From positions 1 through 50,341 of IMG/VR virus record IMGVR_UViG_3300030419_000543: a stretch of DNA of 50,341 bases, one strand, 5' to 3'. The DNA comes from a virus (Duplodnaviria > Caudoviricetes). Position numbers and translations under genes: made by a program. The notes beneath the pieces are model-generated. The model saw only the letters and a list, made by a program, of their open reading frames with translations, ran no database searches and was not told the origin of the DNA. Shown piece after piece: positions 6,491 to 50,272 of this stretch. Each line of letters opens with the position of its first letter. Position 1 is the stretch's first letter.

Positions 6491-9400
6491 ATGGCTATGC
6501 AATGGGGCAGCTTTTTAGAAGGTTATCAAGAGAGTAAAGATAAGCGTGAATCTGCTGAAGCAGCGCAACGTGCCGCACAAGAAGAAAGAGATTACGAAGA
6601 GAAAAAGTGGATATTCCAACAAGATTATCAAGCAGCACTTACTCGTGATGAAGCAATGAGGAAAGAAAGAATCGAAAAACAACGCCGCCTTCAGGATAGA
6701 GATTGGTCAAAAGAGGATACGCGAAATAATAAAATATTTGAATTATTTAAAGCAGATAAAGAATATATGATGAAAACTGTCGAGGCATTAGCTAAGACAC
6801 CGGGAGGCGTTCCTCCAAGTCTGGCAGAAAGAATGATTGCTAATAAATATCTTTCTAGACAACAAATTAATATGATGAATACTGCTGGACAGGCTGAACT
6901 GAAAGGTACAAAACTTAAAGGAACTGTAGACGGTCTTAATGCAACTTTAACATCACACAGTAAAGGAGCAATTATATACTTTCCGGGCGGTGAACGTGGT
7001 TTCGTAAATATGTACAAACCAATTTGGAATCAAACAATATACAAAGATGAAGATATAAATGCTTTCGCACGAGAGTTTATAGGTCAAGTAGCAAAATCAA
7101 AAGAAAAATTTTTACGTAAAAATGATCCTAAAGCTACATCTTTACGTGCAGGTAAAGGTGAAGAAGAATTTTCAACTAGCGTTGGAAAAGCAAAAATTAC
7201 AGCATCGTTTACAACTAATGACCCATCAGATTTAGTTAAGTCTCTAAAAGCACATAAACTTCATATGAATACATTGCTGTATTCTTTAAGAACTAATCTT
7301 CAACTTGGTAAAAACAAACCTAATGGTGGGATAGGTCTTAACGCAATAAATGATAAAGACTTTATAAGGGATAGATTAGAAAGTGAGATGTACAAAAGAA
7401 ATGAATTTATAGGCAAAACAAAAATACCTTATAAAGACTTAAAGACATTTATAAGAAGTCATCAAGGTGGTGACGAATTTATAAAGAATTATATGGAACC
7501 ACAATCAGGTAATGAACTACTTATAGGTAGAGATGAACCTGCTGTTAGTACACAAACAAAACCACAAGTGTCAGCAGCAGAACCGCCAGTAGAATCTCAA
7601 ACAAATGCTATAGCTAGTGAAACTTCACAACAGCCATCTACTCTACCTTCTGTTAAACCTGAAGCAGCACCGAGTATGTCTAATGCAGATATTATTTCCA
7701 AACCTTATGAAACAGGGGATAACAATGTCTTTTTACCTTCTGGACTAGATTCATCTAAGGAAGGAATATATCATATAGGCTTTGAACATAAACCTGAACA
7801 TGATTATGGTGTTATGAAAGCAAATCATATAATTATAGGAAATGCTTTAACAGAAGCTACTGGCAGAACTGACTTAGATTCAAATGAAACTGAGAATTAT
7901 TTTATGCAGTTAAATACAAAAGATAATCTTGTCAATAGAGAACGTAAGAAAGCGTATTTAACCTATAGAATATCTAAAAGATTTCAAGAATTCGCACAGA
8001 ATCCTCTTGATAGTAGAATGAGAACGCAGATTAGTAAAGATAATACTTTTCATAAACATCTTATAGAACTACAGAACGAAGACCCTAACTTCGATGCTAG
8101 ATCAGCTTTTGCTGAAGCATATTTTAGGACTATAGCAAGATATGAGGTTGATCCTTCTAAACAAGGAGATGGCTCTTCAAGGGATATAAGTACAGGTTCT
8201 TCTATGTATTACAAACAAGATGGAACGCCTCTACCGACATATAGTAGAGCAGTTGCTATTAGAAATAAAACACAAGATATGTTAAATGATTTAGATCATG
8301 TAGTTGAGTTAGCTCAAAAAGGTGCAGGAGGTGTGCCTCTAGTTGGTGCAGCATCTGACGCTACAGTTTTTCTACAAAGAATGACCCGTACTATAGGTGA
8401 TTTTAAAACTCTATTTCAACAATTTGTAAAGAATCCTAATACCTCTAGAGAAGGTTATGAAACTTCTACAGACGTAAATAGAGGGCTTATGAATGACTTT
8501 ATGGAAAAAGCAGAAGGAGAAAGAATAAGACTAAAAGGAGATGAAGGAGAATATTCAGCTAAAGAGTATATCTACAGATCAAGATTATTATCTGCTAAAA
8601 TTCAATTAGCGTATACACTGTCATCTGCTTTACAAGGAGATGGAACAGGAGGTGGACGAACTATCTCTGACGCTGATTTTAAATACGCTATGCTTGCAAT
8701 ATGGGGTACAGAGCCTGAACAAATAATTGGTAGATTAACTGCTTTAAGATCATCTACTAATAGTAAACTTAATCGTCTGAAAGCAGATTTTAAATATGAT
8801 AAATTAGGTCAAGCTGAAAAAGTACGGACCTTTATGAATGAATTTGATAAATATCAAAGAATGGATATGGATGAAAGATGGGCAAGCTTACTAGCTGAAG
8901 GAGCTAATAACGAAGGATCAGTACCTTCAGCTACCGATACAAAAGCTATGTACCCTGCACTTGAAAAGAGACTTACTAGCAATGAAGCATTATTAACTTT
9001 CGGACAAGATACTGAAGGAAGGATGTTCTCAAATAGTAAGAAAAAAAGAAAAAATCAACTACTAAAAATAGGGAATGTAACAAGTCATCTTTTAAATCAT
9101 ACTCTAATGCCTGATTTAGTAACAGCATATACTACCGCTAAATCAGGAAATGAAGACTTAGACGCTAATACATTTGTCAGAAATTTTCTTAAAGTAGGAA
9201 CACCTAATCACAAAAATTTTTCTTCTTTAAGAAATACTGTTACTAATTCACTTTTTAGTCGAATAGAAATGATAAATAATACACCTGTTAGTGTACCTAA
9301 TCCAGATAGTATTTTAAGAAGTAAAGACGGAAAGTTAGTAGTTAGCTCAGATAAGAGTTTAAAACCTGTAAGTGTATTTGATAGGCCTAGCCAATACTAT

Positions 9401-9499
9401 GAAGATAAAGGTAATACAGCAGGTCCAGCTAGTTTGTATTTTTCTATACTGAGTTTCGCCATTGAGTCTTTATACAAATCTAAATCAATTCCTGCATAA
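6491..9499 (+). CDS. Large putative internal virion (ejection) protein
   Basis: About 1000 aa. Likely start is ATG 6491 (MAMQWGSFLEGY) after GAGGGAG. N-terminal charged coiled coil; context analogous to T7 gp15. Confidence 0.55.
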   Translation: MAMQWGSFLEGYQESKDKRESAEAAQRAAQEERDYEEKKWIFQQDYQAALTRDEAMRKERIEKQRRLQDRDWSKEDTRNNKIFELFKADKEYMMKTVEALAKTPGGVPPSLAERMIANKYLSRQQINMMNTAGQAELKGTKLKGTVDGLNATLTSHSKGAIIYFPGGERGFVNMYKPIWNQTIYKDEDINAFAREFIGQVAKSKEKFLRKNDPKATSLRAGKGEEEFSTSVGKAKITASFTTNDPSDLVKSLKAHKLHMNTLLYSLRTNLQLGKNKPNGGIGLNAINDKDFIRDRLESEMYKRNEFIGKTKIPYKDLKTFIRSHQGGDEFIKNYMEPQSGNELLIGRDEPAVSTQTKPQVSAAEPPVESQTNAIASETSQQPSTLPSVKPEAAPSMSNADIISKPYETGDNNVFLPSGLDSSKEGIYHIGFEHKPEHDYGVMKANHIIIGNALTEATGRTDLDSNETENYFMQLNTKDNLVNRERKKAYLTYRISKRFQEFAQNPLDSRMRTQISKDNTFHKHLIELQNEDPNFDARSAFAEAYFRTIARYEVDPSKQGDGSSRDISTGSSMYYKQDGTPLPTYSRAVAIRNKTQDMLNDLDHVVELAQKGAGGVPLVGAASDATVFLQRMTRTIGDFKTLFQQFVKNPNTSREGYETSTDVNRGLMNDFMEKAEGERIRLKGDEGEYSAKEYIYRSRLLSAKIQLAYTLSSALQGDGTGGGRTISDADFKYAMLAIWGTEPEQIIGRLTALRSSTNSKLNRLKADFKYDKLGQAEKVRTFMNEFDKYQRMDMDERWASLLAEGANNEGSVPSATDTKAMYPALEKRLTSNEALLTFGQDTEGRMFSNSKKKRKNQLLKIGNVTSHLLNHTLMPDLVTAYTTAKSGNEDLDANTFVRNFLKVGTPNHKNFSSLRNTVTNSLFSRIEMINNTPVSVPNPDSILRSKDGKLVVSSDKSLKPVSVFDRPSQYYEDKGNTAGPASLYFSILSFAIESLYKSKSIPA

Positions 9500-9517
9500 G
9501 ATAGAAAGAAAAATAGA

Positions 9518-12500
9518 ATGGTTATGAATTTATCTACTCCTTCTCTACAAGATCAAATGCAAAATTTGAATATAGTAGAAAATAATGAAGACGATATAGA
9601 TAACACAACAATAGAAGAACCTTCTTTTATAACAGGAGAAGAAGAATCTGAAGTGTTACTAGGACAAGCTGGTACAGACACTATAAAGATGGATGTTCCT
9701 GAACTGTCTGTTGACGAGGAGGACGATGAAGGTAAAGGTGATGAAGGTTTTGTGTCAACTGTTATAGGGGAAACTGGTCAAGCAGTAGGACAAGTAGGTA
9801 TTGGTTTTACAAAAGGGGCTAAAACTGCCATAGAAGTTATGACAGAGCAATCTGAATCTAATCTAGGACTACTATATAATGTTCAAGAATGGGCTGCAGA
9901 TCATTTAGGTAATATAGGAACTTCAATTTCTAATTTCTTTAATGAAGCTGTTAATGATGATTTTATAGCTGATCCACTTTCTGTTGTGCAAACTCTGTCT
10001 GAAAGAGTAAATGTTCACGGTGCTGCTAATGAAATAATGAATAACACATCTTATAAAAAAGCAATGCGTGATTTAGAAGCAGTTTGGTTAAGAGATTTTC
10101 AAGCATGGCTGGAAGTAGAAGGGCGTGATAAAGGATGGGTAGACGCTTTAGCGTACAATACAGGAACTTGGATAGGTGAATTATCTGTCATGCCAACAGG
10201 TGTCGGAGCTTTAAAGAAGGGCATGGCTTTTACTCGTCCTAAATCCTCTATAGTAAGTGAAGCTTTTAAAGTGGCGCAAAAAGAAGGTGGAATGAAAGAA
10301 GTCTTAAAAAAGTATGATTCTGATACAGCTTCTGTAGTAAAGAAAATGCTAATGAATCAACCAAGCGAATTAACTGGTAGCTGGAGAGAGTTATCGTATA
10401 CTTTATCCAGAGGAGCAGGATACCATACAGGCGCATCAGTTTATTATGGTTGGGGTGGCGGTATAGCTCAGACTGCAGGATATTACGGTATGAAATCTTT
10501 TGGAGATTTTACGGACGAAGAAGCTAAAGGGTACTCTTTAGGATTTGGCTTAATAGGTATGATGATAGGATCAAGACCTTTTACATCTGTTCCTAAAATA
10601 TTTATAAAGAAAACTATCGGAATGATACCTGCAGGATTTAAAGTGCATGGTAGAAAACAAAATTTAGCAGATGTTACACGTATGGGTTTAAAAGTACGTC
10701 ATTTACTTTATGCTGAGTATTATAAAAATCAAGGTAATTCAGCTAAATTTAATGAACATTTATTAAGATACTCAGGTGCTGATAAGAAAACAGCTAAAGA
10801 ATTAGTTTATGATAATGAAGGCAAGGATACAGGATTCTATCTTAATAAAATGGTTGATCATCAAGTTCTAGACGATGCAGTTTCCTTCTTTAGAATGATG
10901 CAGGTAATGGCTAGAGAACATCCAGAATACTATGATTACGTAGTAAAAGGCCAAGCAAGAGTCACTAAAAATCAAGAGAGATTTAATAAAGCATTTAAAG
11001 ATGATCCTGTTATGCTCCAACGTATGCGAGATAATTTTGAAAAAGACTTACGATTAAAAAATAAACATACGGAAGTACATAGCGAAGAGGAGTTAAAAGC
11101 TATTATAGATGATTTTGATATAGAAAACCTTACGATGATGCTTGATCAAGTATTTATGTTAGATTTTATGTCTGCCATTAGAAATAAAGCTGTAAGTGAA
11201 GCTACTCTTAAAACATTAAGTACTAAAGAAGCTATTGATCTTTTTACAGAAGGATATGATTATAATCAAGCGATGATAGGACAGTTAAATATCATTGAAT
11301 CTGCTGTAAAAGCTATGAAAAGTGAAGTAGGTGAGACAACTGATACAGCTAAATTCTTAAATGAAGTTGGAAAAACTTATACTAGAGTAAAAAAAGATAT
11401 AGATGAATCAGATAGTGTTATAAGAAATCTTATAGAAGATGCTGAGATTTCTGCTGAAGGATTATCAGATAGAAATTATATAGAAACTATGCAAGAAATG
11501 ACAGGGTTTAGAAGATTTCTTGGAAAAACTGATGTATCACGAGTACAATCTGAAAAAGAAATGGTGGAAAATGTTAGAACTAGATTTCACCAAAATAGAG
11601 AACAAAAATTAAACCACTATGTAGGTGAATACGCGAAATATGATAATGTAGAAATAGATGCTACACACGTACTTGATAGTCTTGAGGATACATTACAAAA
11701 AGACAAAGTAGTACACGCACTTGGCTCTATCGGAAAAGGAACGGCACAAAGAACTTTAGAACGTACATTACCTCAATTTAAAGCACGTATACGATTAACA
11801 GGTATAAGGAATAAATTTCAATTAGATGATCTTGAAGAAATACCTGAAGGAATGTCTGAAAATGACTACATCGAAGTTATAGTAGAAAGCGCACAAGAGT
11901 TATCTGAACATACAGTTGGTTTGCATACTAGTATAAAAAATATTGATATGGGACATTTTGATATAAACAATATGCGAACTTATTCAAATGATTCTTCACC
12001 TATACAAGATGTTTTTAAAGCACATAAAGAAAATCCCTTAAAAGGTCCAGAATTAGCTACAGAACTAATAGCAGCGATGAGAAGAGAAGCAGATGAGATT
12101 AGTAAAATACCCTCAGAATCCGCAGATATAGATGCGCTTCTTAATACTTTCGCAGAACCTATTATGACAGTAGGCGATGCTCGTCAAATAGCTAAAGCCT
12201 TATTTGAAAGAGCAAGTAAATTATCACCTAGTCGAGAATCATCACAGCGAAGAGATTTGTTCGCATTAGGAAACGATATTATGAACGGTATCGACAAAGG
12301 ATCACCAGAGGATTACGCTTCTGGTGAAATAATAGAAGGTATAAGAGATGTGTCTTCTAATTATAAGAAGGACATTGCAGAAGTCTACTATCAAGGATGG
12401 GGTAAAGATTTTTTAAACTTTCGTCATAGAATAAAAGAATCTGATCCTGCAAGTCTTCCAGACGTTTATGCTGGTATTTTGTTAAAAGGCGATCCTGATT

Positions 12501-33292: not shown

Positions 33293-33739
33293 ATGTTACC
33301 TCAGACAACTACAGTAAACAATAAGAAGAAGCGAGACTTAACGGATAAACAAGAGAAGTTCATCAATTGTTTACTATCTAATGGGGGCAAAGTATCGAAG
33401 GCTGTAGTAGCGGCTGGCTATAAAGAAGCTAGCCGTTCTTGGTTGATGAAGACGCTGAAGGATGAAATCCTAGAGCGCACCAAGTCCATGCTAGCCTCCT
33501 ATTCAGTTAAGGCGGCACACAGAATAACAGAGGGCTTAGACGCTGATGGCTCTACGCCGATGAACCAGATGGACATGCGCTTAAAGAGTGCAGAGGCTGT
33601 ATTGGATCGTGTAGGCATTGGCAAGAAGCAGATATCAGAGGTACAGGGCGAAGTGATACACGGTATTGTCATGTTACCTGCGAAGGATCAACCTAAAGAT
33701 GTGGAGATTACAATTAATGAGGATATGAGCTATGGCTAA
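33293..33739 (+). CDS. terS: Terminase small subunit
   Basis: LTDKQEKF....G.V..A...AGY HTH; A..VLDRVG; upstream of TerL. Confidence 0.8.
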   Translation: MLPQTTTVNNKKKRDLTDKQEKFINCLLSNGGKVSKAVVAAGYKEASRSWLMKTLKDEILERTKSMLASYSVKAAHRITEGLDADGSTPMNQMDMRLKSAEAVLDRVGIGKKQISEVQGEVIHGIVMLPAKDQPKDVEITINEDMSYG

Positions 33740-34166
33740 TAAAGACCCACGTAAAACAATGAAGAAGATATACAAAGGACTAGATTATGTCCATTCTGAA
33801 AAAAGAGGGATGAGACATAAAGAGTCTGTACCTGATTGGAGATGGGTTGATCCTCCGAAAGGGTCTTCTGTTAGTGAAATAGCTAAAGAAAACGGTGTTA
33901 GTGTTAAAAGTATACTGGCCTTAAATCCAAAATTAAAAAAAGACCCACATTTTGTAAGTAGATTTAAAAAGATAAAAGTGCCTACCACTGCAAAAGGAAA
34001 GAGAGTTTTTGAAGGTACGCCTAAAAAGGAACGTAAAAAACTAGATAGAACTTCTCCAAGATGGACAGGTGTAGAGGCTGTTACTGGAAGTGCTTATCCT
34101 AAAGAAAAAGCCTCTGGCGGTTCCGTAAAGGGCCGACCAGCTAAAAGATCAGCGGAGAATTCGTAG
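33732..34166 (+). CDS. Basic LysM-domain protein with C-terminal xASGGxV motif
   Basis: KGSSVSEIAKENGVSVKSILALNP...IKVP (LysM); ends KASGGSVKGRPAKRSAENS. Confidence 0.75.
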   Translation: MANKDPRKTMKKIYKGLDYVHSEKRGMRHKESVPDWRWVDPPKGSSVSEIAKENGVSVKSILALNPKLKKDPHFVSRFKKIKVPTTAKGKRVFEGTPKKERKKLDRTSPRWTGVEAVTGSAYPKEKASGGSVKGRPAKRSAENS

Positions 34167-34170
34167 TGTA

Positions 34171-34548
34171 ATGGGCAAGTCAGGATGGGAAAAGGTATTA
34201 ACAAGACGAGGTGAGACTTTCTCTGATATGAGTACGTTGTCATCTGAAGAAGTTGCTAAAGGTTTAGCAGAGGAAGATGCTTATGCTAATAGAGATTATA
34301 AATCTGTAACTGAAGGTGGAGATACCCTTTATATAAGAACTAATATCCCTAGAGTTAAAAGACGTATTGCGTTAGAAAAAGAATATACAAAAAGACGTAA
34401 TAGAAATCCACATTCAGGGCATATTCGAAAGTTATATTATAAAGAACGAAATAAAATACGTAGAGCTAACAATCTTAAACCTATTCCAACTCCTAAGAAA
34501 TATGCTTATGGTGGTCGTGTAGCTAAAAGGTCAGTGGAGAAGTCGTAG
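34171..34548 (+). CDS. Basic protein with C-terminal YAYGGRV motif
   Basis: Arg/Lys-rich; ends KKYAYGGRVAKRSVEKS. Confidence 0.7.
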   Translation: MGKSGWEKVLTRRGETFSDMSTLSSEEVAKGLAEEDAYANRDYKSVTEGGDTLYIRTNIPRVKRRIALEKEYTKRRNRNPHSGHIRKLYYKERNKIRRANNLKPIPTPKKYAYGGRVAKRSVEKS

Positions 34549-39048: not shown

Positions 39049-41169
39049 TTGGCCGATGATGACGTAATTGTAGATCAGGAGATGCAAGAAGTTCCTGAAG
39101 CCGAAGCTGCTACGGGAATTATAGGGACTATTATGGAACGGTTTCGCAATGCGGAATCGGGAAGACAACTAGAAGAAGCTCGTTGGTTAAAAGCCTATAA
39201 GAACTATCGTGGTGTCTACGACTCTACTACACAATACCGTAGCAATGAACGTAGTCAGGTCTTCATTAAGATTACGAAGACAAAAGTCCTAGCAGCTTAC
39301 GGACAGATCATAGACATCTTATTCGCTAACAATAAGTTCCCTATCGCAGTAGAGTCAACTCCGATGCCTTTCGGTATAGATGAATTCGCTCATCTTAGTA
39401 AGGTTCCGATAGAAGAAGATACTGATCCTTATGGTTTCGAAGGTGATGATAGAGAATTATTACCGGGAGCAATGGAGGCTACGCCTAAAGGTCCGAAGGC
39501 TGCAGAACTAGGTGGTCTAGCAGATATGTACGAAGGTGCTAATTTGGCTTCAGGACCAGCTAAGATGGCAGAGCCACAAATATCTCCTGCAGCAGAGGCT
39601 GCGCGTACGATGGAGAAGTGTATACAAGATCAACTTCTCGACACTAGCGCAGTTACCGTTCTACGACACGCCATATTCGAATGCGCCTTATTAGGTACAG
39701 GTGTTGTTAAAGGTCCGTTCAATTACAATAAAACAGTTCATAATTGGACGCAAGGTGAAGAAGGGTCTAAGGAATACGCTCCTATAGATCGTACCGTACC
39801 TAGAATGGAAGCAGTTAGTTGTTGGGATTTCTATCCTGATCCTAGTGCTACTAGCATTAACGATGCGGAATACGTCATACAACGTCATCGAATGAACAGG
39901 GAGCAATTACGTGATCTTATTAATCGTCCACACTTCGATGCTGAAGCTATCAGCAATGTTCTCGCAGGTGGCCCTAACTATATGGAACGCTACTTCGAAT
40001 CTTCGCTACACGCTAACGAGGATGATCCTTCTTACGCGACTAATCGCTATGAAGTTTACGAGTATTGGGGTAATCTTGATAGTGCTTTGGCAGAAGACTT
40101 CGGAATGGATATGGAAGGTATTTCAGATGATTTGGAATCCGTTCAGGTAAATGCTTGGATATGTGGTCAAGAGATACTACGCTTCGTAATCAATCCTTTT
40201 ATTCCTGCACGTATACCTTACCATTCTTTCCCTTACGAACTTAACCCTTACCAACTATTCGGTGTTGGTGTCGCAGAGAATATGGAAGATAGCCAGTTAT
40301 TGATGAATGGACACATTCGCATGGCAATAGATAACTTAGCTCTAGCAGGTCATCTAGTCTTCGATATTGACGAGACACAGTTAGTACCCGGTCAGTCTTA
40401 CGATGTCTATCCCGGTAAAGTATTCCGTAGGCAATCAGGTGTTACTGGCACTGCAGTCAATGCTATAAAGTTCCCTAGTACGGCTGGCGAGAATATGCAG
40501 ATGTACGATAAAGCTCGACAGTTATCTGACGAACAAACTGGTATACCTAGTATCATGCACGGACAAACTGGTGTTACTGGCACTGGTAGGACGGCTGCTG
40601 GTTTGAGTATGTTAATGTCGAGTGCGAGTTTAAGTGTTAAGACGGTAATAAAGAACATTGATGACTTTCTACTAAAACCACTAGGAGAGGCATTCTTCCA
40701 GTGGAATATGCAATTTAATGAGGAGACACCTGAGAAGATAGGTGACTTGGAGATTAAGCCTAAAGGAACTAGCGCAGTTATACAGAAGGAAGTCAGGACA
40801 CAACGCCTCACCACACTTCTACAGACTGTCTCTAATCCAATGTTAGCTCCATTCATCAAGATACCTAATCTAATAAGAGAATTGGCTATCAGTCAGGATA
40901 TTGATCCTGATGCGTTAGTAAATAATATTAATGACGCAGCCGTATTCGCAGAAGTATTGAGAGGGCTTAATGAACGAACTACAGGCGAAGATGCTACTGC
41001 CGCTGGTCAACAACCAACTGGCATGGGCGGCACTGGAGGAGTACCTAAAGGAACTGGTGGCGCACCACAGGCAACGGCTGGTGGTGGAGGAATCGGAGTC
41101 GGAAATGCGCCGACTGCAGGGGAAGCTGGCTTTACTGGAAACCTTGGTGGTTCTCAAGAAATCAACTAA
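39049..41169 (+). CDS. Portal protein
   Basis: RWLKAYKNYRG, FIKITKTKVLAAYGQI, LGTGVVKGP, WDFYPDP, YELNPY..FGVG, RTAAGLSMLM; TTG start. Confidence 0.93.
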   Translation: MADDDVIVDQEMQEVPEAEAATGIIGTIMERFRNAESGRQLEEARWLKAYKNYRGVYDSTTQYRSNERSQVFIKITKTKVLAAYGQIIDILFANNKFPIAVESTPMPFGIDEFAHLSKVPIEEDTDPYGFEGDDRELLPGAMEATPKGPKAAELGGLADMYEGANLASGPAKMAEPQISPAAEAARTMEKCIQDQLLDTSAVTVLRHAIFECALLGTGVVKGPFNYNKTVHNWTQGEEGSKEYAPIDRTVPRMEAVSCWDFYPDPSATSINDAEYVIQRHRMNREQLRDLINRPHFDAEAISNVLAGGPNYMERYFESSLHANEDDPSYATNRYEVYEYWGNLDSALAEDFGMDMEGISDDLESVQVNAWICGQEILRFVINPFIPARIPYHSFPYELNPYQLFGVGVAENMEDSQLLMNGHIRMAIDNLALAGHLVFDIDETQLVPGQSYDVYPGKVFRRQSGVTGTAVNAIKFPSTAGENMQMYDKARQLSDEQTGIPSIMHGQTGVTGTGRTAAGLSMLMSSASLSVKTVIKNIDDFLLKPLGEAFFQWNMQFNEETPEKIGDLEIKPKGTSAVIQKEVRTQRLTTLLQTVSNPMLAPFIKIPNLIRELAISQDIDPDALVNNINDAAVFAEVLRGLNERTTGEDATAAGQQPTGMGGTGGVPKGTGGAPQATAGGGGIGVGNAPTAGEAGFTGNLGGSQEIN

Positions 41170-41209
41170 TGATACGATAAAGGCACATAAGAAAATAAAA
41201 GATGGCTGA
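40970..41209 (+). CDS. Small helical protein overlapping the portal C-terminus
   Basis: GAGAGG RBS; LLPLVNN...W..L..Y...RLQGK..LL pattern typical of the gene following podovirus portals. Confidence 0.65.
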   Translation: MNELQAKMLLPLVNNQLAWAALEEYLKELVAHHRQRLVVEESESEMRRLQGKLALLETLVVLKKSTNDTIKAHKKIKDG

Positions 41210-43154
41210 GATACAGGAACAAACAGACCCCGGTTCGCCGGGAGACTATATGGAAGGGCCATTTCCTGAACCGGGAACAGGTGGCTATGAAGAACATTTT
41301 GATACTCCCTCTACGGGTCAACTAACCTCTGCTGACATCTTAGGTAAGATGCAAGCTGGACAGCCTTTATATCAAGGTGAGACATTACCTGATGTTCCGA
41401 TAGGTATGTCGGCTAAAGGATTCTACGGGCAATTTCCCGGTGGTGCTTCTGTATATTCACAAGCTCCTTTCCGAAGAGGTACGTACATGCCGATGTCGGC
41501 TCCTTCTACGTCTATCTTCGATCCTACAGGAGGTGGTGATGGAACGACAACTACACCACAAGAAGAAGCTCCTGTAGATACACAGATGGATTCTTTGATT
41601 CCTGATACGGATACAGAAGATGTGTTTCATGAAGATAGTGATATGGATATGGACTTATCTCTTTCTTCACCTACAATTGATGTAGATTTTGAATCTCCAG
41701 TAAATAATATAGATTTACCTGATAATCTGACAGAGTTATTAGAAGATGCAGCTAATTATCCTTACGTAGAGAATTTAAATAAAGTAATAACAACTGGAGT
41801 AAAAAATTTAAGTGATGGTATAGACAAAGGCGTAGATACATTTCACAAAGAGTTAAGTGATCTAGGAGATGAATTAGGTAGATTAATTGATGACCCGATA
41901 GGAGAAGTAGCAGCACATATTAAAGGAGAAATAGACGGTGTTCTAGAGTGGCTGAGTGATCCATTCTCTGCAGAAGGTCTGGATAAAGCAGCTTCTCAGA
42001 TTACAAAGGTCGTAGCGCAACAAATGATAAGTAATTTGTTCTCTCAAATGGGTCTTGGGATGGCTGCAGGGCCAGCAGCTTTCTTAGTTATAAACTTAAT
42101 TGGTGAGGGTACACAGATAGGAATGCCGGGAACAGTGTACGATGATGATGTTTATGATCCTAGTACGGCTAAGTCAACTACGATAGCAGGATATGATATG
42201 TTTGGTAGAGCAGTAAATGATCAAGGTAAACCTATACATGTAAATACTGGTCCTAATACTGGTTTACCAGCTTGGGGGTATGCGTTTAAATCTTTAGGTG
42301 CTATGATGTCATATCCACATTGGGATGGTTTAACAGATGACCAGAAACAAGATGCGATAGATAATTTTCAAGCAGAACAATATTCCCATGATTATGAGGG
42401 CGATTGGGACACATCTGGTTCTCACGATTTTGGTCTAACAATGGGACATTTAGAAGGTCTTCATGGTGAATACGATAGACCTGAAGCAGACAGTGGGGAT
42501 ATTGGCACTACACCTTCTACACCTTCTTCACAGATTCCTGATATGATAGAAATAGATACTTGGGAAAAACCACTCTACGTTACTCCTGTTTATGAAGGCA
42601 CAATAAAAGGAAAAGAAGGAGATGATCCTAAAGGTGGAGCAGGTGATGATAGACTTGGAGATGATCCATCTCCTTCTGACATAGATGTATCACAAGCACA
42701 AGTAGCAGATACACCTAGTGATGTTCACGTATATGGTGATCCTGATATGGGTGAAGATTCCGATGATCAATCTAGTGGCGAAGCAGGTGATGATAGCGGT
42801 AAGATAATCTGTACGATGATGAACCGTATGTACGGTCTAGGAGAATACCGTATCAAACAATGGCTCTTATATTCTAAACGCCATCTTAAAGATGAACATC
42901 AACTAGGATATCACAAACTATATTGCAACCTAGTAGCTAAGATGCCTACTAACAGAATACTAGCGAAGATACTATCCCACTTAGCAGATAAGCGCACAGA
43001 TGACATCGTAGCTGAGATGAAGGGTACTGAACGTAGTTGGCTAGGTAGATTCTATAGAGCTACCTTGATAGACGGACCTAGCTATATAGTAGGTACGATG
43101 ATAAAGAAGAATTGGCTTAAACCAGCAGATATTTCTGTATTACAAAAGATATAA
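41202..43154 (+). CDS. Acidic low-complexity putative virion protein with C-terminal KIICT domain
   Basis: Asp/Gly/Pro-rich body, central hydrophobic helix and basic C-terminal GKIICTMMN..YG..W..HQLGYH domain. Confidence 0.65.
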   Translation: MAEIQEQTDPGSPGDYMEGPFPEPGTGGYEEHFDTPSTGQLTSADILGKMQAGQPLYQGETLPDVPIGMSAKGFYGQFPGGASVYSQAPFRRGTYMPMSAPSTSIFDPTGGGDGTTTTPQEEAPVDTQMDSLIPDTDTEDVFHEDSDMDMDLSLSSPTIDVDFESPVNNIDLPDNLTELLEDAANYPYVENLNKVITTGVKNLSDGIDKGVDTFHKELSDLGDELGRLIDDPIGEVAAHIKGEIDGVLEWLSDPFSAEGLDKAASQITKVVAQQMISNLFSQMGLGMAAGPAAFLVINLIGEGTQIGMPGTVYDDDVYDPSTAKSTTIAGYDMFGRAVNDQGKPIHVNTGPNTGLPAWGYAFKSLGAMMSYPHWDGLTDDQKQDAIDNFQAEQYSHDYEGDWDTSGSHDFGLTMGHLEGLHGEYDRPEADSGDIGTTPSTPSSQIPDMIEIDTWEKPLYVTPVYEGTIKGKEGDDPKGGAGDDRLGDDPSPSDIDVSQAQVADTPSDVHVYGDPDMGEDSDDQSSGEAGDDSGKIICTMMNRMYGLGEYRIKQWLLYSKRHLKDEHQLGYHKLYCNLVAKMPTNRILAKILSHLADKRTDDIVAEMKGTERSWLGRFYRATLIDGPSYIVGTMIKKNWLKPADISVLQKI

Positions 43155-43167
43155 GGATGACATAAAG

Positions 43168-44103
43168 ATGGCACTAGCACCCGAAGAGATGCCAGCGGAA
43201 GGCTTCGCTGCACCAACTGCTCCCCCACCAATGGAAGGTGAAGGAGTGGATATAGGTATGATTAACGAGGCAGAAGCTATGCCCCCACAAGAAGGTGGAG
43301 AACAGTCAGTCGCTGATGATGTACCTATGGAAGCGGAAGAAGGGGATTATGTGTTACCCTACGAAACTGTCCTTTTACACGGCTTAAATCAACTTAACAG
43401 GTACGCTAAAGAGGCTATTAAGTTGGCTATGGAAAATAATGTCGATCTGACAGGCACTAATCTTGATCCTACTGATGACGTACCGATTAAGATCAGTAAT
43501 TACGAATACGTCATTCCTAAAGGCTTAGTACCTTTCTTCGGAGGTGGTAAGAAATACTTAGATAAGTTACGTAATGAAGGATTGGAGTTACGTAAACGTT
43601 TAGAAGAGGAAGGTCAAGGTGACGTAGCTGGTCAACAAGAAGCAGCCGCACCTGTAGGTGCTGCACCGCCAATGCCACAAGAACAAGGTTTCGCAGGAGG
43701 AGCTATGCCACCAATGGAAGGTGGAATGCCACCGCCACCGATGGAAGGAGCTATGCCACCACCACCACCTATGATGCAGAAAGGTGGGTTCGTGTTGTCA
43801 AAAGACAAGGAAGCTGAAATCTTAGAGAAAGATGAGCCACAAACTGCAGAACAACAACGTACTATGGCACAGCAACCTGCGATGATAACGCCAGATGGAA
43901 AAAGAGTTAAACAGGGCTTCTCCGCACCATCAGGCTACGCCCACGGTGGAGAGATACACGAGGGATTGGGTTTCGAATCTAAAGATATTACTCCTGCGAA
44001 TGTAGGACAGATGCGACAGAATGCAGAAGATGCTTTGAATATACTGAAAGGTTACGAGAAGTCCTTCGCAAGTAAGCAACGTACGGATGAGAGATTAGCG
44101 TAG
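43168..44103 (+). CDS. Pro/Met-rich putative virion protein with two DDVP..[DE]YV units and two xxGG motifs
   Basis: ADDVPMEAEEGDYVLP, TDDVPIKISNYEYVIP, MQKGGFV, YAHGGEI. Confidence 0.7.
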   Translation: MALAPEEMPAEGFAAPTAPPPMEGEGVDIGMINEAEAMPPQEGGEQSVADDVPMEAEEGDYVLPYETVLLHGLNQLNRYAKEAIKLAMENNVDLTGTNLDPTDDVPIKISNYEYVIPKGLVPFFGGGKKYLDKLRNEGLELRKRLEEEGQGDVAGQQEAAAPVGAAPPMPQEQGFAGGAMPPMEGGMPPPPMEGAMPPPPPMMQKGGFVLSKDKEAEILEKDEPQTAEQQRTMAQQPAMITPDGKRVKQGFSAPSGYAHGGEIHEGLGFESKDITPANVGQMRQNAEDALNILKGYEKSFASKQRTDERLA

Positions 44104-47190: not shown

Positions 47191-47823
47191 ATGCGTTTCT
47201 TTAAACTATTGAGTGATGATGACATCAAGAGATGTCTAAAGAGCGTAAAAGCTCATAACTTCAAGGATGGTAAACAGACACAACCATCGAATGAAATGAA
47301 GAGTAATAAAGAGTCTATCAACATACCTGATGATATACGTAAACTAATAACAGATAGATTCTATGACACCCACTACGTAGATAGTGTATATTGTCCGACT
47401 AGAGTATCAGTTAACTTCTATAATAAATACGAGAAGGATGATTACTATAATATTCACGTAGACGAATTTAAAGCTAGACCTAAATCTAACAACGTGTTCT
47501 TCGACTATGGATTTAGTGTTAATTTGGACGATAGTTACGAAGGTGGAGAGTTTTTATTACATACTCCTATCGGTCCGATAGCAAGGAAGTTACAAGCTGG
47601 TGAGGCTGCAGTATTCCCTATAATCTATCCTCACGGTGTAGCTAAGATAACGGAAGGCATAAGGAAGAACATAATAGGATGGCTCTCCTCTAACATTTCA
47701 TACGAGCAATCTTATATATTACATAACCTTTTTGAAGTCGGTCAGTCGATATCCTCTGATAGCAATATGTTCACTAAGGTCAATCTAATCCAGAATTACC
47801 TGAAGAAAGAATGGAGTAAATAA
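47191..47823 (+). CDS. 2OG-Fe(II) oxygenase (PKHD/PiuC-YbiX-like)
   Basis: F.DGK.T, NKY....Y..HVD, YEGGE, HGV..IT.G.R....GW and C-terminal NL....W. Confidence 0.88.
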   Translation: MRFFKLLSDDDIKRCLKSVKAHNFKDGKQTQPSNEMKSNKESINIPDDIRKLITDRFYDTHYVDSVYCPTRVSVNFYNKYEKDDYYNIHVDEFKARPKSNNVFFDYGFSVNLDDSYEGGEFLLHTPIGPIARKLQAGEAAVFPIIYPHGVAKITEGIRKNIIGWLSSNISYEQSYILHNLFEVGQSISSDSNMFTKVNLIQNYLKKEWSK

Positions 47824-48338: not shown

Positions 48339-49127
48339 ATGTCTAAAGAAGATGATCTACGGAAAAGATTATTAGAATATATTGAAACACAGAAACCGGG
48401 GTATGCTGAAAAGAAACGTGCTGCTAGAGAAGAAGCTCGTAGGAAAAAACCTGCTAAAAGGAAAAAGAAAACACCTTCACAACCAGAACCTATAGATAAG
48501 GCTAAAGATGCTCGTGCAAATATCAGAGAAGAAGCTCGTAGGAAAAAACCTGCTAAGAAAAAACCTCAAGTTGATACGTTTAAAGTTGCAGGTGAAAAGG
48601 TAAAAGCTAAAAAAGCTTCCAAGAAAGTAGATGCTTTTGAATCTATTCCTACACCTGATGTTGAAGATTTTAAAGGACCATCTACTCATAAGGTTAAGAA
48701 GGGTGACACACTCTCAGCAATTGCTAAAAGAATGGGTACAACCATAAAAGCGTTAATGGCTGCTAATCCTTCTATTAAAAATGCTAATATGATACGTATC
48801 GGGCAAACTATAAAAGGTCCGATTGGTTCTGCAGCTAGTCCATATAAAGGGATGAAAAAAGGTGAATTAGCTAAAAGTAAGAAAAAAGCAGAACAAGATA
48901 AAAGGGCAAGATTAGAGAAACGTTTAAGTAACACAATTGTAGTTGATCCTAATTATAGCCCCTTTCAAAGCGGCGGCATGATAGGCCAATCCGACATGTC
49001 AGCCAAGAAAGTCGCTGCACCTAAGAAGAATAAGAAAAAGATTCCACAGTACTACAAGGGTGGTGGGATGATTAAGGCTGGTAAGAAGTATGCTTATGGT
49101 GGTCGAGTAGCGAAGTACAAGGAGTGA
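48339..49127 (+). CDS. Basic LysM-domain protein with three C-terminal xxGG motifs
   Basis: HKVKKGDTLSAIAKRMGTTIKALMAANPSIKNANMIRIGQTI; FQSGGMI, YKGGGMI, YAYGGRV. Confidence 0.85.
   Translation: MSKEDDLRKRLLEYIETQKPGYAEKKRAAREEARRKKPAKRKKKTPSQPEPIDKAKDARANIREEARRKKPAKKKPQVDTFKVAGEKVKAKKASKKVDAFESIPTPDVEDFKGPSTHKVKKGDTLSAIAKRMGTTIKALMAANPSIKNANMIRIGQTIKGPIGSAASPYKGMKKGELAKSKKKAEQDKRARLEKRLSNTIVVDPNYSPFQSGGMIGQSDMSAKKVAAPKKNKKKIPQYYKGGGMIKAGKKYAYGGRVAKYKE
48426..48556 (+). repeat. 32-bp intragenic direct repeat (REEARRKKPAK x2)
   Basis: AGAGAAGAAGCTCGTAGGAAAAAACCTGCTAA at 48426 and 48525. Confidence 0.9.
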
Positions 49128-49135
49128 GCTTTTAG

Positions 49136-50272
49136 ATGCGACCAGTATATCGTCCCGGAATGTCTGCTGCGGAAAAGAAGTATGTAACAGATAGAACTAA
49201 TAGAGCTTGGAGAAATTTAAATAGTCCTCGTCACCACTGGAATGACCCTGTTGTAAAAGCAGTAGGAGAAAGACTTCGTAATACACTTGGAAATGAAATT
49301 AAAGAAGATACTGAGAGGAGAGGACGTATACAATCTTTTCAAAGACAATTTTCGAATGATTGGGTATCTAAATCTCCTTTAAAGGATTTATATGAAAAAA
49401 AGAAACGTCAACGATTAACACCTACAGAACTATCAAAATTACGCCAAGATCAATTTACTCTTAATGCGCGAATGAATACTGCAATAAGAAAAAATTTTAA
49501 AGATGATTTAAAAGCAATGGATGCTTTTCAAAACCGTAGGAATAAATATCAAAGAGCTATAGAAGATGATCTAATATCTAAAGGTACTCTTTGGCTAGGA
49601 AAAGATGCTAAAGGCTTTCGTCAGGGTGTAGGTACGCAACATTTTGCTAATATTATACAACAACAAAGGAAACGACATGAAGACACTGTAAATCGTCGGA
49701 AACGTGAGTACAACGAATGGGCTAAATGGGCTAAACAACATGATCCAAAAACGTACAAGCGAATCAGTGCAAAGGAAAAAGAAGGAGGGTATTTCTCTAC
49801 TTTAGACCGACCTTCATCATCTCGCTTTCAAAATCTAAGAGATTATTATAAAGCATTAGAAGATTCTAGACAAAAACACTATAGATGGAAATGGGGAAAA
49901 ACTGGTTCTACTTGGGATGATCCTCGTCCTAAACAGCCTGAAGGTATGAAAAGGCTACGTGAACTGGTAATACGAGGTGGTGTACCTAGTATATCCCCTA
50001 AAGCTGCTGTACAAAAACAATTTGATGATGCAGCTAGAAAGAATGCAGAAAAGCAACTTAAAGCTCAAACAGATAAACAGCTTAAATCATATTATAATCA
50101 ACTAAGCACACCCGCTCCACGTAAAAAACCAAGATACAACCAAGCTGCCTACCTCGCAGGACTTCAAAGCGCACCTATGATGACAATGGGACAGAAGATG
50201 AATCAAGGTATAGCTAAACCCTACGCTAACGGTGGCGGCGTACGTAAACCTAAATATAATAAGAAGGGTTAA
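49136..50272 (+). CDS. Basic protein with C-terminal YANGGGV motif
   Basis: 378 aa, Arg/Lys-rich; ends KPYANGGGVRKPKYNKKG. Confidence 0.7.
   Translation: MRPVYRPGMSAAEKKYVTDRTNRAWRNLNSPRHHWNDPVVKAVGERLRNTLGNEIKEDTERRGRIQSFQRQFSNDWVSKSPLKDLYEKKKRQRLTPTELSKLRQDQFTLNARMNTAIRKNFKDDLKAMDAFQNRRNKYQRAIEDDLISKGTLWLGKDAKGFRQGVGTQHFANIIQQQRKRHEDTVNRRKREYNEWAKWAKQHDPKTYKRISAKEKEGGYFSTLDRPSSSRFQNLRDYYKALEDSRQKHYRWKWGKTGSTWDDPRPKQPEGMKRLRELVIRGGVPSISPKAAVQKQFDDAARKNAEKQLKAQTDKQLKSYYNQLSTPAPRKKPRYNQAAYLAGLQSAPMMTMGQKMNQGIAKPYANGGGVRKPKYNKKG

Follow-up and report, generated by a model that had tools for sequence, protein, structure and literature searches.

The closest described counterparts of the element treated here are the C-terminal regions of siphophage tape measure proteins. 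In phage lambda, a fragment of ~14 kDa, gpHC, is cleaved off gpH. Its start has been estimated at residue ~690, residues 818-849 were located on gpI, and residues ~690-817 are without resolved density (PMC12617516). The cleavage of T5 pb2 takes place after R1127. A role in digesting the cell wall is attributed to pb2C, and after opening, the C-termini of pb2* insert between the hub subunits by strand addition (PMC10038345). The published pb2 region bears the name 'metallopeptidase motif', and muralytic activity has been reported for the equivalent T5 region, as cited in the same paper (PMC10038345). In JBD30, only the tape measure protein's last 33 residues were resolved, and for residues 1022-1066, a hook composed of two helices plus a short hairpin was predicted, which, as the authors speculate, anchors the protein inside the baseplate (PMC11445458). 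In mycobacteriophage Douge, residues 1658-1699 are the only resolved ones (PMC13033339). Among podoviruses, internal virion proteins with a lysin (phiKMV-type IVP-C, T7 gp16 type) host exchangeable tail-lysozyme domains (PMC4819975). Here, we describe a protein of 311 amino acids (aa) encoded in IMGVR_UViG_3300030419_000543, a tailed-phage record of 50,341 bases with an estimated completeness of 94%, the full length of which was analysed and is called the window. The protein is real, conserved and without existing annotation. It contains an acidic, internally duplicated domain that is homologous, as judged from profile comparisons, to a module that siphophage tape measure proteins carry close to their C-terminus.

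The domain is composed of two units of the type DDVP...EYV (Table 1), both of which are kept in 122 metagenomic homologues of the 311-aa open reading frame (ORF). In 20 aligned homologues, D50, D51, G59, D60, L63 and P64 of unit 1 are nearly invariant, and D103, V105, P106, S110, N111, Y112, E113 and P117 of unit 2 are invariant. The profiles of the two units match each other over 38 columns (hhalign 94.6%, E 6.5e-8), which demonstrates a true internal duplication and not a chance resemblance. AlphaFold2 (AF2) predicts a compact domain in which a strand and two helices are followed by short paired strands and two further helices, i.e. a repeated strand-helix-helix. The predicted local distance difference test value (pLDDT) of the domain is 62-88 in the window protein and 83-95 over residues 51-130 of a 222-aa relative. 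In both models, unit 2 has one short strand immediately ahead of EY(V/R)I and one at this motif (window protein: 109-110 and 113-116; relative: 96-97 and 100-103). Since these strands are predicted to pair within the unit, unit 2 looks like a self-contained hairpin and not like a half-strand awaiting a partner. Searches of Pfam (E<=0.1), PHROGs and NCBIfam returned no family for the 311-aa protein and none for the 650-aa protein encoded before it. This includes the Phage_Mu_F-type domain of SPP1 gp7 and Mu F-like minor head proteins, for which Pfam, NCBIfam and PHROGs gave no match. Similarly, hmmsearch with the full-length family profile against PDB sequences yielded a chance match only (E 0.58).

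The link to tape measure proteins comes from a motif, FAxGGxVxGPG..SDSIPAxLSNGEFV. Used as a back-translated pattern, it was found in at least 114 IMG/VR stretches, 80 loci of which, with 86 motif instances, were analysed in detail. The open frames bearing it have a median length of 1073 aa, and the motif is situated at a median of 0.88 of the frame. A [hydrophobic][AS]xGG strand is present at most 30 aa upstream in 63 of the 86 instances and at most 80 aa downstream in 56. All eight motif ORFs tested are Pfam tape measure proteins, in which the motif lies outside the Pfam domains. A profile of 38 motif regions aligns with the domain profile over unit 2 (DDVPIKISNYEYVIP and the helix; hhalign 88.6%, E 2.7e-6). 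Unit 2 contains the hairpin motif D-[DS]-[IV]-P-x-x-[LI]-S-N-G-E-[FY]-V followed by a helix, and unit 1 is its paralogue. Among PDB sequences, the motif profile matches JBD30 gp46 at 1006-1093, overlapping the predicted hook, as well as Douge gp16 at two places, 956-1028 and 1409-1472. In addition, it matches lambda gpH at 724-804, a region that ends in RGYATGGYVG and lies inside gpHC just past its estimated start. As the module regions are without resolved density in JBD30, lambda and Douge, no solved structure shows the module itself. In some tape measure ORFs the module is repeated, three times in one locus (L156) and twice in two others (L140 and L182), with FAxGG strands flanking each copy. 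In T5 pb2 (L249, residues 1120-1150), the cut after R1127 is followed by AEGGMMYPGVSYQMGEHGTEVV (AEGGMM...GEHGTEVV), whose likeness to a GG...GExV hairpin module, in the region of the published 'metallopeptidase motif', is by eye only.

The tape-measure module of lambda gpH, JBD30 gp46 and Douge gp16, the last with two copies, resembles the window element in its GGxV, the hairpin and the subsequent helix ending ..L..(I/M)N. It is also placed alike, just ahead of a released and often muralytic C-terminal part. Furthermore, where the 3' end is complete, 18 of 63 tape measure proteins have a GG with a hydrophobic residue in their last 15 aa, compared to 356 out of 4577 control windows. The C-terminal end of lambda gpH, MRDGGLFSGGGR, belongs to this type and forms part of, or adjoins, the stretch located on gpI. 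Likewise, most members of the domain family end in GG[FL]V plus basic residues, but the window copy does not. There are clear differences, too. In the window, the element occurs twice in succession as a compact domain of two units, and the GPGTGTS loop is absent. The structural module of the phage is of the podovirus type (HMO-2011/SU10-like) without tail tube or tail chaperone genes, and the gene of the element lies between portal and scaffold and codes for just 311 aa without a tape measure Pfam domain.

The window protein has GG elements of its own. A conserved PPQEGGEQSV is present 3 residues upstream of unit 1, with G43, G44, S47 and V48 at 90% or more, and aligns with the [FYM]QEGGxV element of relatives. 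This arrangement is general: among the representative relatives that have at least 60 residues upstream of the domain, 94 of 105 contain GGx[VILM] within these 60 aa, versus 103 out of 629 control windows from other parts of these proteins. Further GG elements follow downstream (positions 206 and 257), past a linker of ~50 aa: MMQKGGFV (202-209) and GYAHGGEI (256-263), both conserved. In two natural proteins having both the domain and GG motifs, AF2 leaves all GG segments below a pLDDT of 50, i.e. undocked. The initial annotation had placed the two units correctly, and the tape-measure motif that it named exists and aligns with the domain as it had suggested. Its remark that neither unit is directly preceded by an aromatic-A-x-GG strand applies to the literal pattern but not in substance, since EGGEQSV, albeit without the aromatic-A, occupies this place before unit 1. 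Of the two such strands it saw after the linker, one is literal (YAHGG, 257-261). The second is not: MMQKGGFV deviates from the pattern, and FAGG (175-178), which belongs to the variable Pro-rich linker, is without the x and has a GG that is not conserved. The idea that the motif had been split within and across proteins is contradicted by the cis element of unit 1 and the upstream GGx[VILM] of the relatives.

The domain protein is one part of a set that occurs fused or separated. A relative of 1033 aa (P0123) aligns over residues 583-828 with the 311-aa ORF (54% identity, E 2e-75) and over residues 43-99 with the N-terminus of the 650-aa ORF (E 2e-8). It continues into a SleB-like Hydrolase_2 part and ends in KGGFVKRVVDKAA, a GGFV-type tail. 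This means that one ancestral post-portal protein is present as three genes in the window. The Phage_lysozyme gene starts 2 nt 3' of the 311-aa ORF. The module recurs in longer relatives (590-1285 aa) with an identity of 75-80%, and PF07486 is present in 34 of these 53 proteins. A census comprised 80 related IMG/VR loci, 74 of which were counted and 6 of which had no downstream room. In 57 of the 74, a hydrolase is fused or adjoining: 13 loci have a fused Hydrolase_2-like domain, 13 a fused lysozyme and 31 a lysozyme gene at most 700 nt away. The 17 loci with neither fusion nor nearby lysozyme all belong to one divergent lineage, and in its sole member inspected (L070), the next gene encodes a Peptidase_M15_3. 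Like podoviral ejection proteins with a lysin, the domain is found with a muralytic domain in the same polypeptide or in the fission partner. The persistence of this linkage when one enzyme family replaces another speaks for a functional partnership of the domain protein with a wall-cutting enzyme. T5 pb2 has a hydrophobic-segment N-terminal part, an anchor or cut region, a muralytic part and a hub-docked end (PMC10038345), and the fused 1033-aa relative displays the same order. However, there is no similarity at the level of hidden Markov models (HMMs), and cleavage and anchoring are features described for T5. The podoviral internal virion proteins are similar as hosts of exchangeable lysozyme domains. 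In contrast to these, the window protein has no PHROG or Pfam match to them, and its gene follows the portal gene instead of the tubular tail genes.

The family is broad. In 1.84 billion proteins, a 118-position domain profile found 400 representative clusters at E<=1e-3 and 114 at 1e-10. The domain is nearly always matched as a whole unit and resides at the N-terminus, in the middle or at the C-terminus of proteins of 110-1160 aa. Among 150 listed clusters, 69 distant members were scanned with Pfam and PHROGs. Pfam yielded SLT (2), GH108 (2), Phage_lysozyme2 (1), Hydrolase_2 (1) and PG_binding (2); no Pfam model covered the domain itself in these 69 members. PHROGs yielded phrog_3547 'tail length tape measure protein' (9, weak), phrog_3108 (8) and many endolysin families, and one member matches phrog_342, 'internal virion protein with endolysin domain'. 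In HMO-2011 and CRP-1, the module is found at the N-terminus of the protein in the post-portal slot (gp49 in both). Look-alikes in a protein atlas are unnamed viral clusters, two of which are rich in Hydrolase_2 or Phage_lysozyme. A crAss cargo-protein lead from the same atlas (0.85) was treated as chance. A tblastn search of 50,697 phage records with the 311-aa protein and two distant members (P0211, P0303) gave no match. A scan of bacterial and archaeal genomes with the domain alignment produced 88 pattern stretches, none of which was confirmed, and no link to prophages.

Short GG tails are found on other proteins of the window as well. Four unrelated ORFs have basic GGxV tails with the core YA[YN]GGxV, three of which are strict tags (Table 1). 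At least one strict [FYW]AxGG tail occurs in 31 of 80 related loci, and Y-A-x-G-G-x-V-x-K-Y is invariant in 16 aligned tails of related contigs. The GGx[VIM] repeat is present two or three times in many tails and one to three times in the window tails. An origin of the tags from a DNA repeat was rejected: two YAYGGRVAK tags are alike in DNA, but the motif is kept at the protein level across lineages. In view of the GG endings of tape measure proteins and the position of the lambda gpH end at gpI, the tails seem to correspond to the C-terminal ends of tape measure proteins, for which the tail hub is the known partner. The genomes of HTVC033P and CHOED contain neither the domain nor convincing tags. 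HTVC033P gp70 (L082, 11828-12928, ..IGGRVS) and a CHOED ORF (9032-10072), structural-module proteins of these two phages without the domain, end exactly in GGRV[SN], which could reflect coincidence or another use of this ending. gp70 was ruled out as a case of a tag without domain, as it is not homologous to the tagged 378-aa protein.

Taken together, the 311-aa ORF is probably, though only with a modest degree of confidence, the central part of an ejection (pilot) protein that belongs to a marine podovirus of the HMO-2011 type and is modular and portal-proximal. The domain of the ORF would act as a docking or release module like gpHC and pb2C. An ancestral ejection protein of ~1000 aa would have been split here into the 650-aa ORF, the 311-aa ORF and the lysozyme. 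By analogy with the tape-measure module, the domain would serve as a docking or release element. In the virion, it might hold the muralytic and pilot proteins within the portal-tail channel, and upon ejection, it might either tether them or free them beside the cell wall. As short elements, GGFV and YAxGGxV would correspond to the GG strands that flank the tape-measure module and also to the tape-measure C-terminal ends seated in the tail hub.

Several observations weigh against this assignment. The homology to tape measure proteins spans just ~40 aligned columns, and the domain HMM recognizes only 10 of the 86 tape-measure motif instances at an independent E-value (i-E) below 1e-3, so that the relation is real but distant. 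In a two-sequence search, lambda gpH scores weakly (i-E 7e-5), and the motif HMM does not score T5 pb2 at all. Foldseek comparisons of both AF2 models with PDB and BFVD revealed nothing significant (best E 2.1, 0.12 and 3.1). The window 311-aa protein itself has no hydrolase, no hydrophobic segment and no C-terminal tag. The 'hook' role in JBD30 is a speculation of the authors from an AlphaFold model (PMC11445458). Finally, the internal virion location is inferred from synteny and fusions only, since a literature search found no virion proteomics or structure for HMO-2011-type phages. Literature searches also found no description of the module in these phages, and a full-text search for motif strings (SDSIPA, LSNGEF and others) no relevant paper.

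Three other explanations were considered. According to the initial annotation, the domain is a receptor in trans: the YAxGGxV tags of the LysM, 378-aa, 125-aa and 144-aa proteins would be bound by strand addition and their carriers loaded near the portal. The tags it had noticed are indeed real, conserved and portable, and the charges are complementary, as the domain has a net charge of -11 and the tails have +6 to +12 in 45 aa. GG elements are tightly linked to the domain in cis, and GG[FL]V tails are a frequent ending of domain proteins. The predicted co-occurrence was observed: each of the 8 contigs that bear a tag and leave 6 kb or more of room upstream carries the domain, and the domain (or its first unit) is accompanied by GGxV elements in a basic context in all four domain-bearing complete genomes examined, the window, HMO-2011, CRP-1 and HTVC115P. 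However, the eight contigs are all from one lineage, in which co-occurrence is expected by shared descent, so that this evidence is not independent; a set of six complete genomes is too small, and the relaxed tail pattern is estimated to arise by chance a few times per genome. Nor is anything 'missing' in the window protein, which owns a cis GG element and, in the AF2 model, a hairpin that looks self-contained, and the GG segments of the two natural proteins with both parts are predicted to remain undocked. In lambda, the tag-like end of gpH is held by the hub protein gpI and not by the module (PMC12617516), which points to another receptor. A complex prediction of the domain with the 45-residue tagged tail of the LysM protein (score 0.01, mark 0.32) speaks neither for nor against binding. 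Hence, a hub that binds tags in trans is improbable. The same degree of doubt attaches to the wider proposal that the domain and the YAxGGxV/GGFV peptides form a portable address system common to podoviruses and siphoviruses. If it were true, any protein with a basic tail of ~12 residues, be it a LysM protein, a hydrolase or a small terminase-adjacent protein, would be loaded into the virion and injected. Docking would occur onto the acidic two-hairpin domain or onto the domain's site in the tail channel, and the system would be the phage equivalent of encapsulin cargo-loading peptides.

A second possibility, unlikely yet deserving more credit than the receptor in trans, is that the module marks or causes a maturation cut beside the GG element, comparable to the conversion of gpH to gpH* and gpHC and of pb2 to pb2* and pb2C. 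The separate genes of the window would then be the genetic equivalent of the cut, and processing could remove or expose tags. The lambda module begins just after the estimated start of gpHC (PMC12617516), the R1127 site of T5 is directly followed by the GG segment (PMC10038345), and gene fission in the family falls at the module borders. Yet the T5 likeness gets no HMM score. The domain conserves neither a protease fold nor catalytic residues, its invariant columns being G, E, P and G, and no prohead or tail protease gene was detected among the 16 window ORFs scanned. In the tags, moreover, the residues behind GG are without variation (V, K, Y), which differs from a simple cut-after-GG site. 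Least credible is that the domain targets the cell wall or modulates the activity of the hydrolase as a wall-binding accessory instead of docking in the virion. Such modules combine with different enzymes, as does the domain with at least six hydrolase families, and muralytic activity has been reported for the equivalent T5 region (cited in PMC10038345). On the other hand, the domain also exists without a hydrolase, in the N-termini of gp49 of HMO-2011 and CRP-1 and in tape measure proteins. Moreover, it is always encoded in the portal-adjoining structural module and is strongly acidic, which makes this explanation very improbable.

Table 1. Features of the window and of the 311-aa ORF.
Feature	Coordinates	Strand	Evidence and remarks
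144-aa protein, weak LysM, ending ..ASGGSVKGRPAKRSAENS (tag-like)	33732..34166	+	tail pattern, domain scan
125-aa protein ending ..KKYAYGGRVAKRSVEKS (tagged)	34171..34548	+	tail pattern
Portal (SU10_portal)	39049..41169	+	Pfam match
650-aa post-portal ORF	41202..43154	+	N-terminal part matches N-terminal part of ~1000-aa fused relatives
311-aa domain protein, middle piece of post-portal set	43168..44103	+	ORF call, homologue alignment
Duplicated domain of acidic character (net charge -11), residues 36-150; hairpin/strand with helices in two copies	43273..43617	+	AF2, hhalign, profile search, charge
Cis GG element EGGEQSV, residues 42-48, just 5' of unit 1	43291..43311	+	homologue conservation
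Unit 1, SVADDVPMEAEEGDYVLP, residues 47-64	43306..43359	+	sequence, homologue conservation, hhalign versus unit 2
Unit 2, TDDVPIKISNYEYVIP, residues 102-117; aligns with tape-measure SDSIPAxLSNGEFV motif	43471..43518	+	conservation, profile-profile match
Variable Pro/Met/Gly-rich linker, residues about 151-201, predicted disordered	43618..43770	+	alignment, AF2
Conserved MMQKGGFVLSK element, residues 202-212	43771..43803	+	P201, M203, G206, G207, F208, V209 invariant
Conserved GFSAPSGYAHGGEIHEG element, residues 250-266	43915..43965	+	sole literal aromatic-A-x-GG of the ORF (YAHGG, 257-261)
C-terminal helix, residues 279-310	44002..44097	+	alignment, AF2; found in short forms with separate lysozyme gene next
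Phage_lysozyme gene, 163 aa	44106..44597	+	Pfam; in some relatives fused to domain protein
LysM protein ending ..GGGMIKAGKKYAYGGRVAKYKE (tagged)	48339..49127	+	tail pattern, domain scan, tail alignment
378-aa protein ending ..KPYANGGGVRKPKYNKKG (tagged)	49136..50272	+	tail pattern, relatives

The capsid gene of the window is related to the capsid genes of HMO-2011, the CRP roseophages and pelagiphage HTVC033P. The structural genes are arranged in the order portal, 650-aa ORF, 311-aa ORF, Phage_lysozyme gene, scaffold-like gene (phrog_13678) and major capsid protein. The portal protein has a long Gly-rich C-terminal tail (40990-41169, ..GMGGTGGVPKGTGGAPQATAGGGGIGVGN..). The 650-aa ORF carries an extra C-terminal domain of ~120 aa (42780-43154), Cys-led and of the type 'ICT...', which matches the C-terminus of HMO-2011 gp49 (E 7e-7) and is also shared with HTVC033P gp76. 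In the L070 homologue of the 650-aa ORF (7625-9955), Pfam Hom_end_hint was detected at residues 601-629 with E 5.7e-5, below the threshold (23.6 bits vs a cut-off of 32.1). With its 'ICT' domain, the post-portal protein may possess a Hint-like end that cuts itself. Within the structural module, a gene for a 2OG-Fe(II) oxygenase (47191-47823) has the capsid gene on one side and the tagged LysM gene on the other. Upstream of the two small tagged ORFs, a 148-aa ORF (33293-33739) contains ..LLSNGGKVSKAVVAAGYK.., a region which we take to resemble the N-terminal helix-turn-helix of small terminase subunits.

The assignment of the 311-aa ORF to a modular ejection protein joins two subjects that have been kept apart, the cleaved C-terminal region of tape measure proteins (gpHC, pb2C) and the post-portal proteins of a very abundant group of marine podoviruses. 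A soluble domain of ~100 aa together with peptides of 12 residues offers a concrete object for the study of protein retention and release in the virion channel. Furthermore, an unannotated shared module that travels with exchangeable wall hydrolases would provide a handle for the annotation of ejection proteins in metagenomes.

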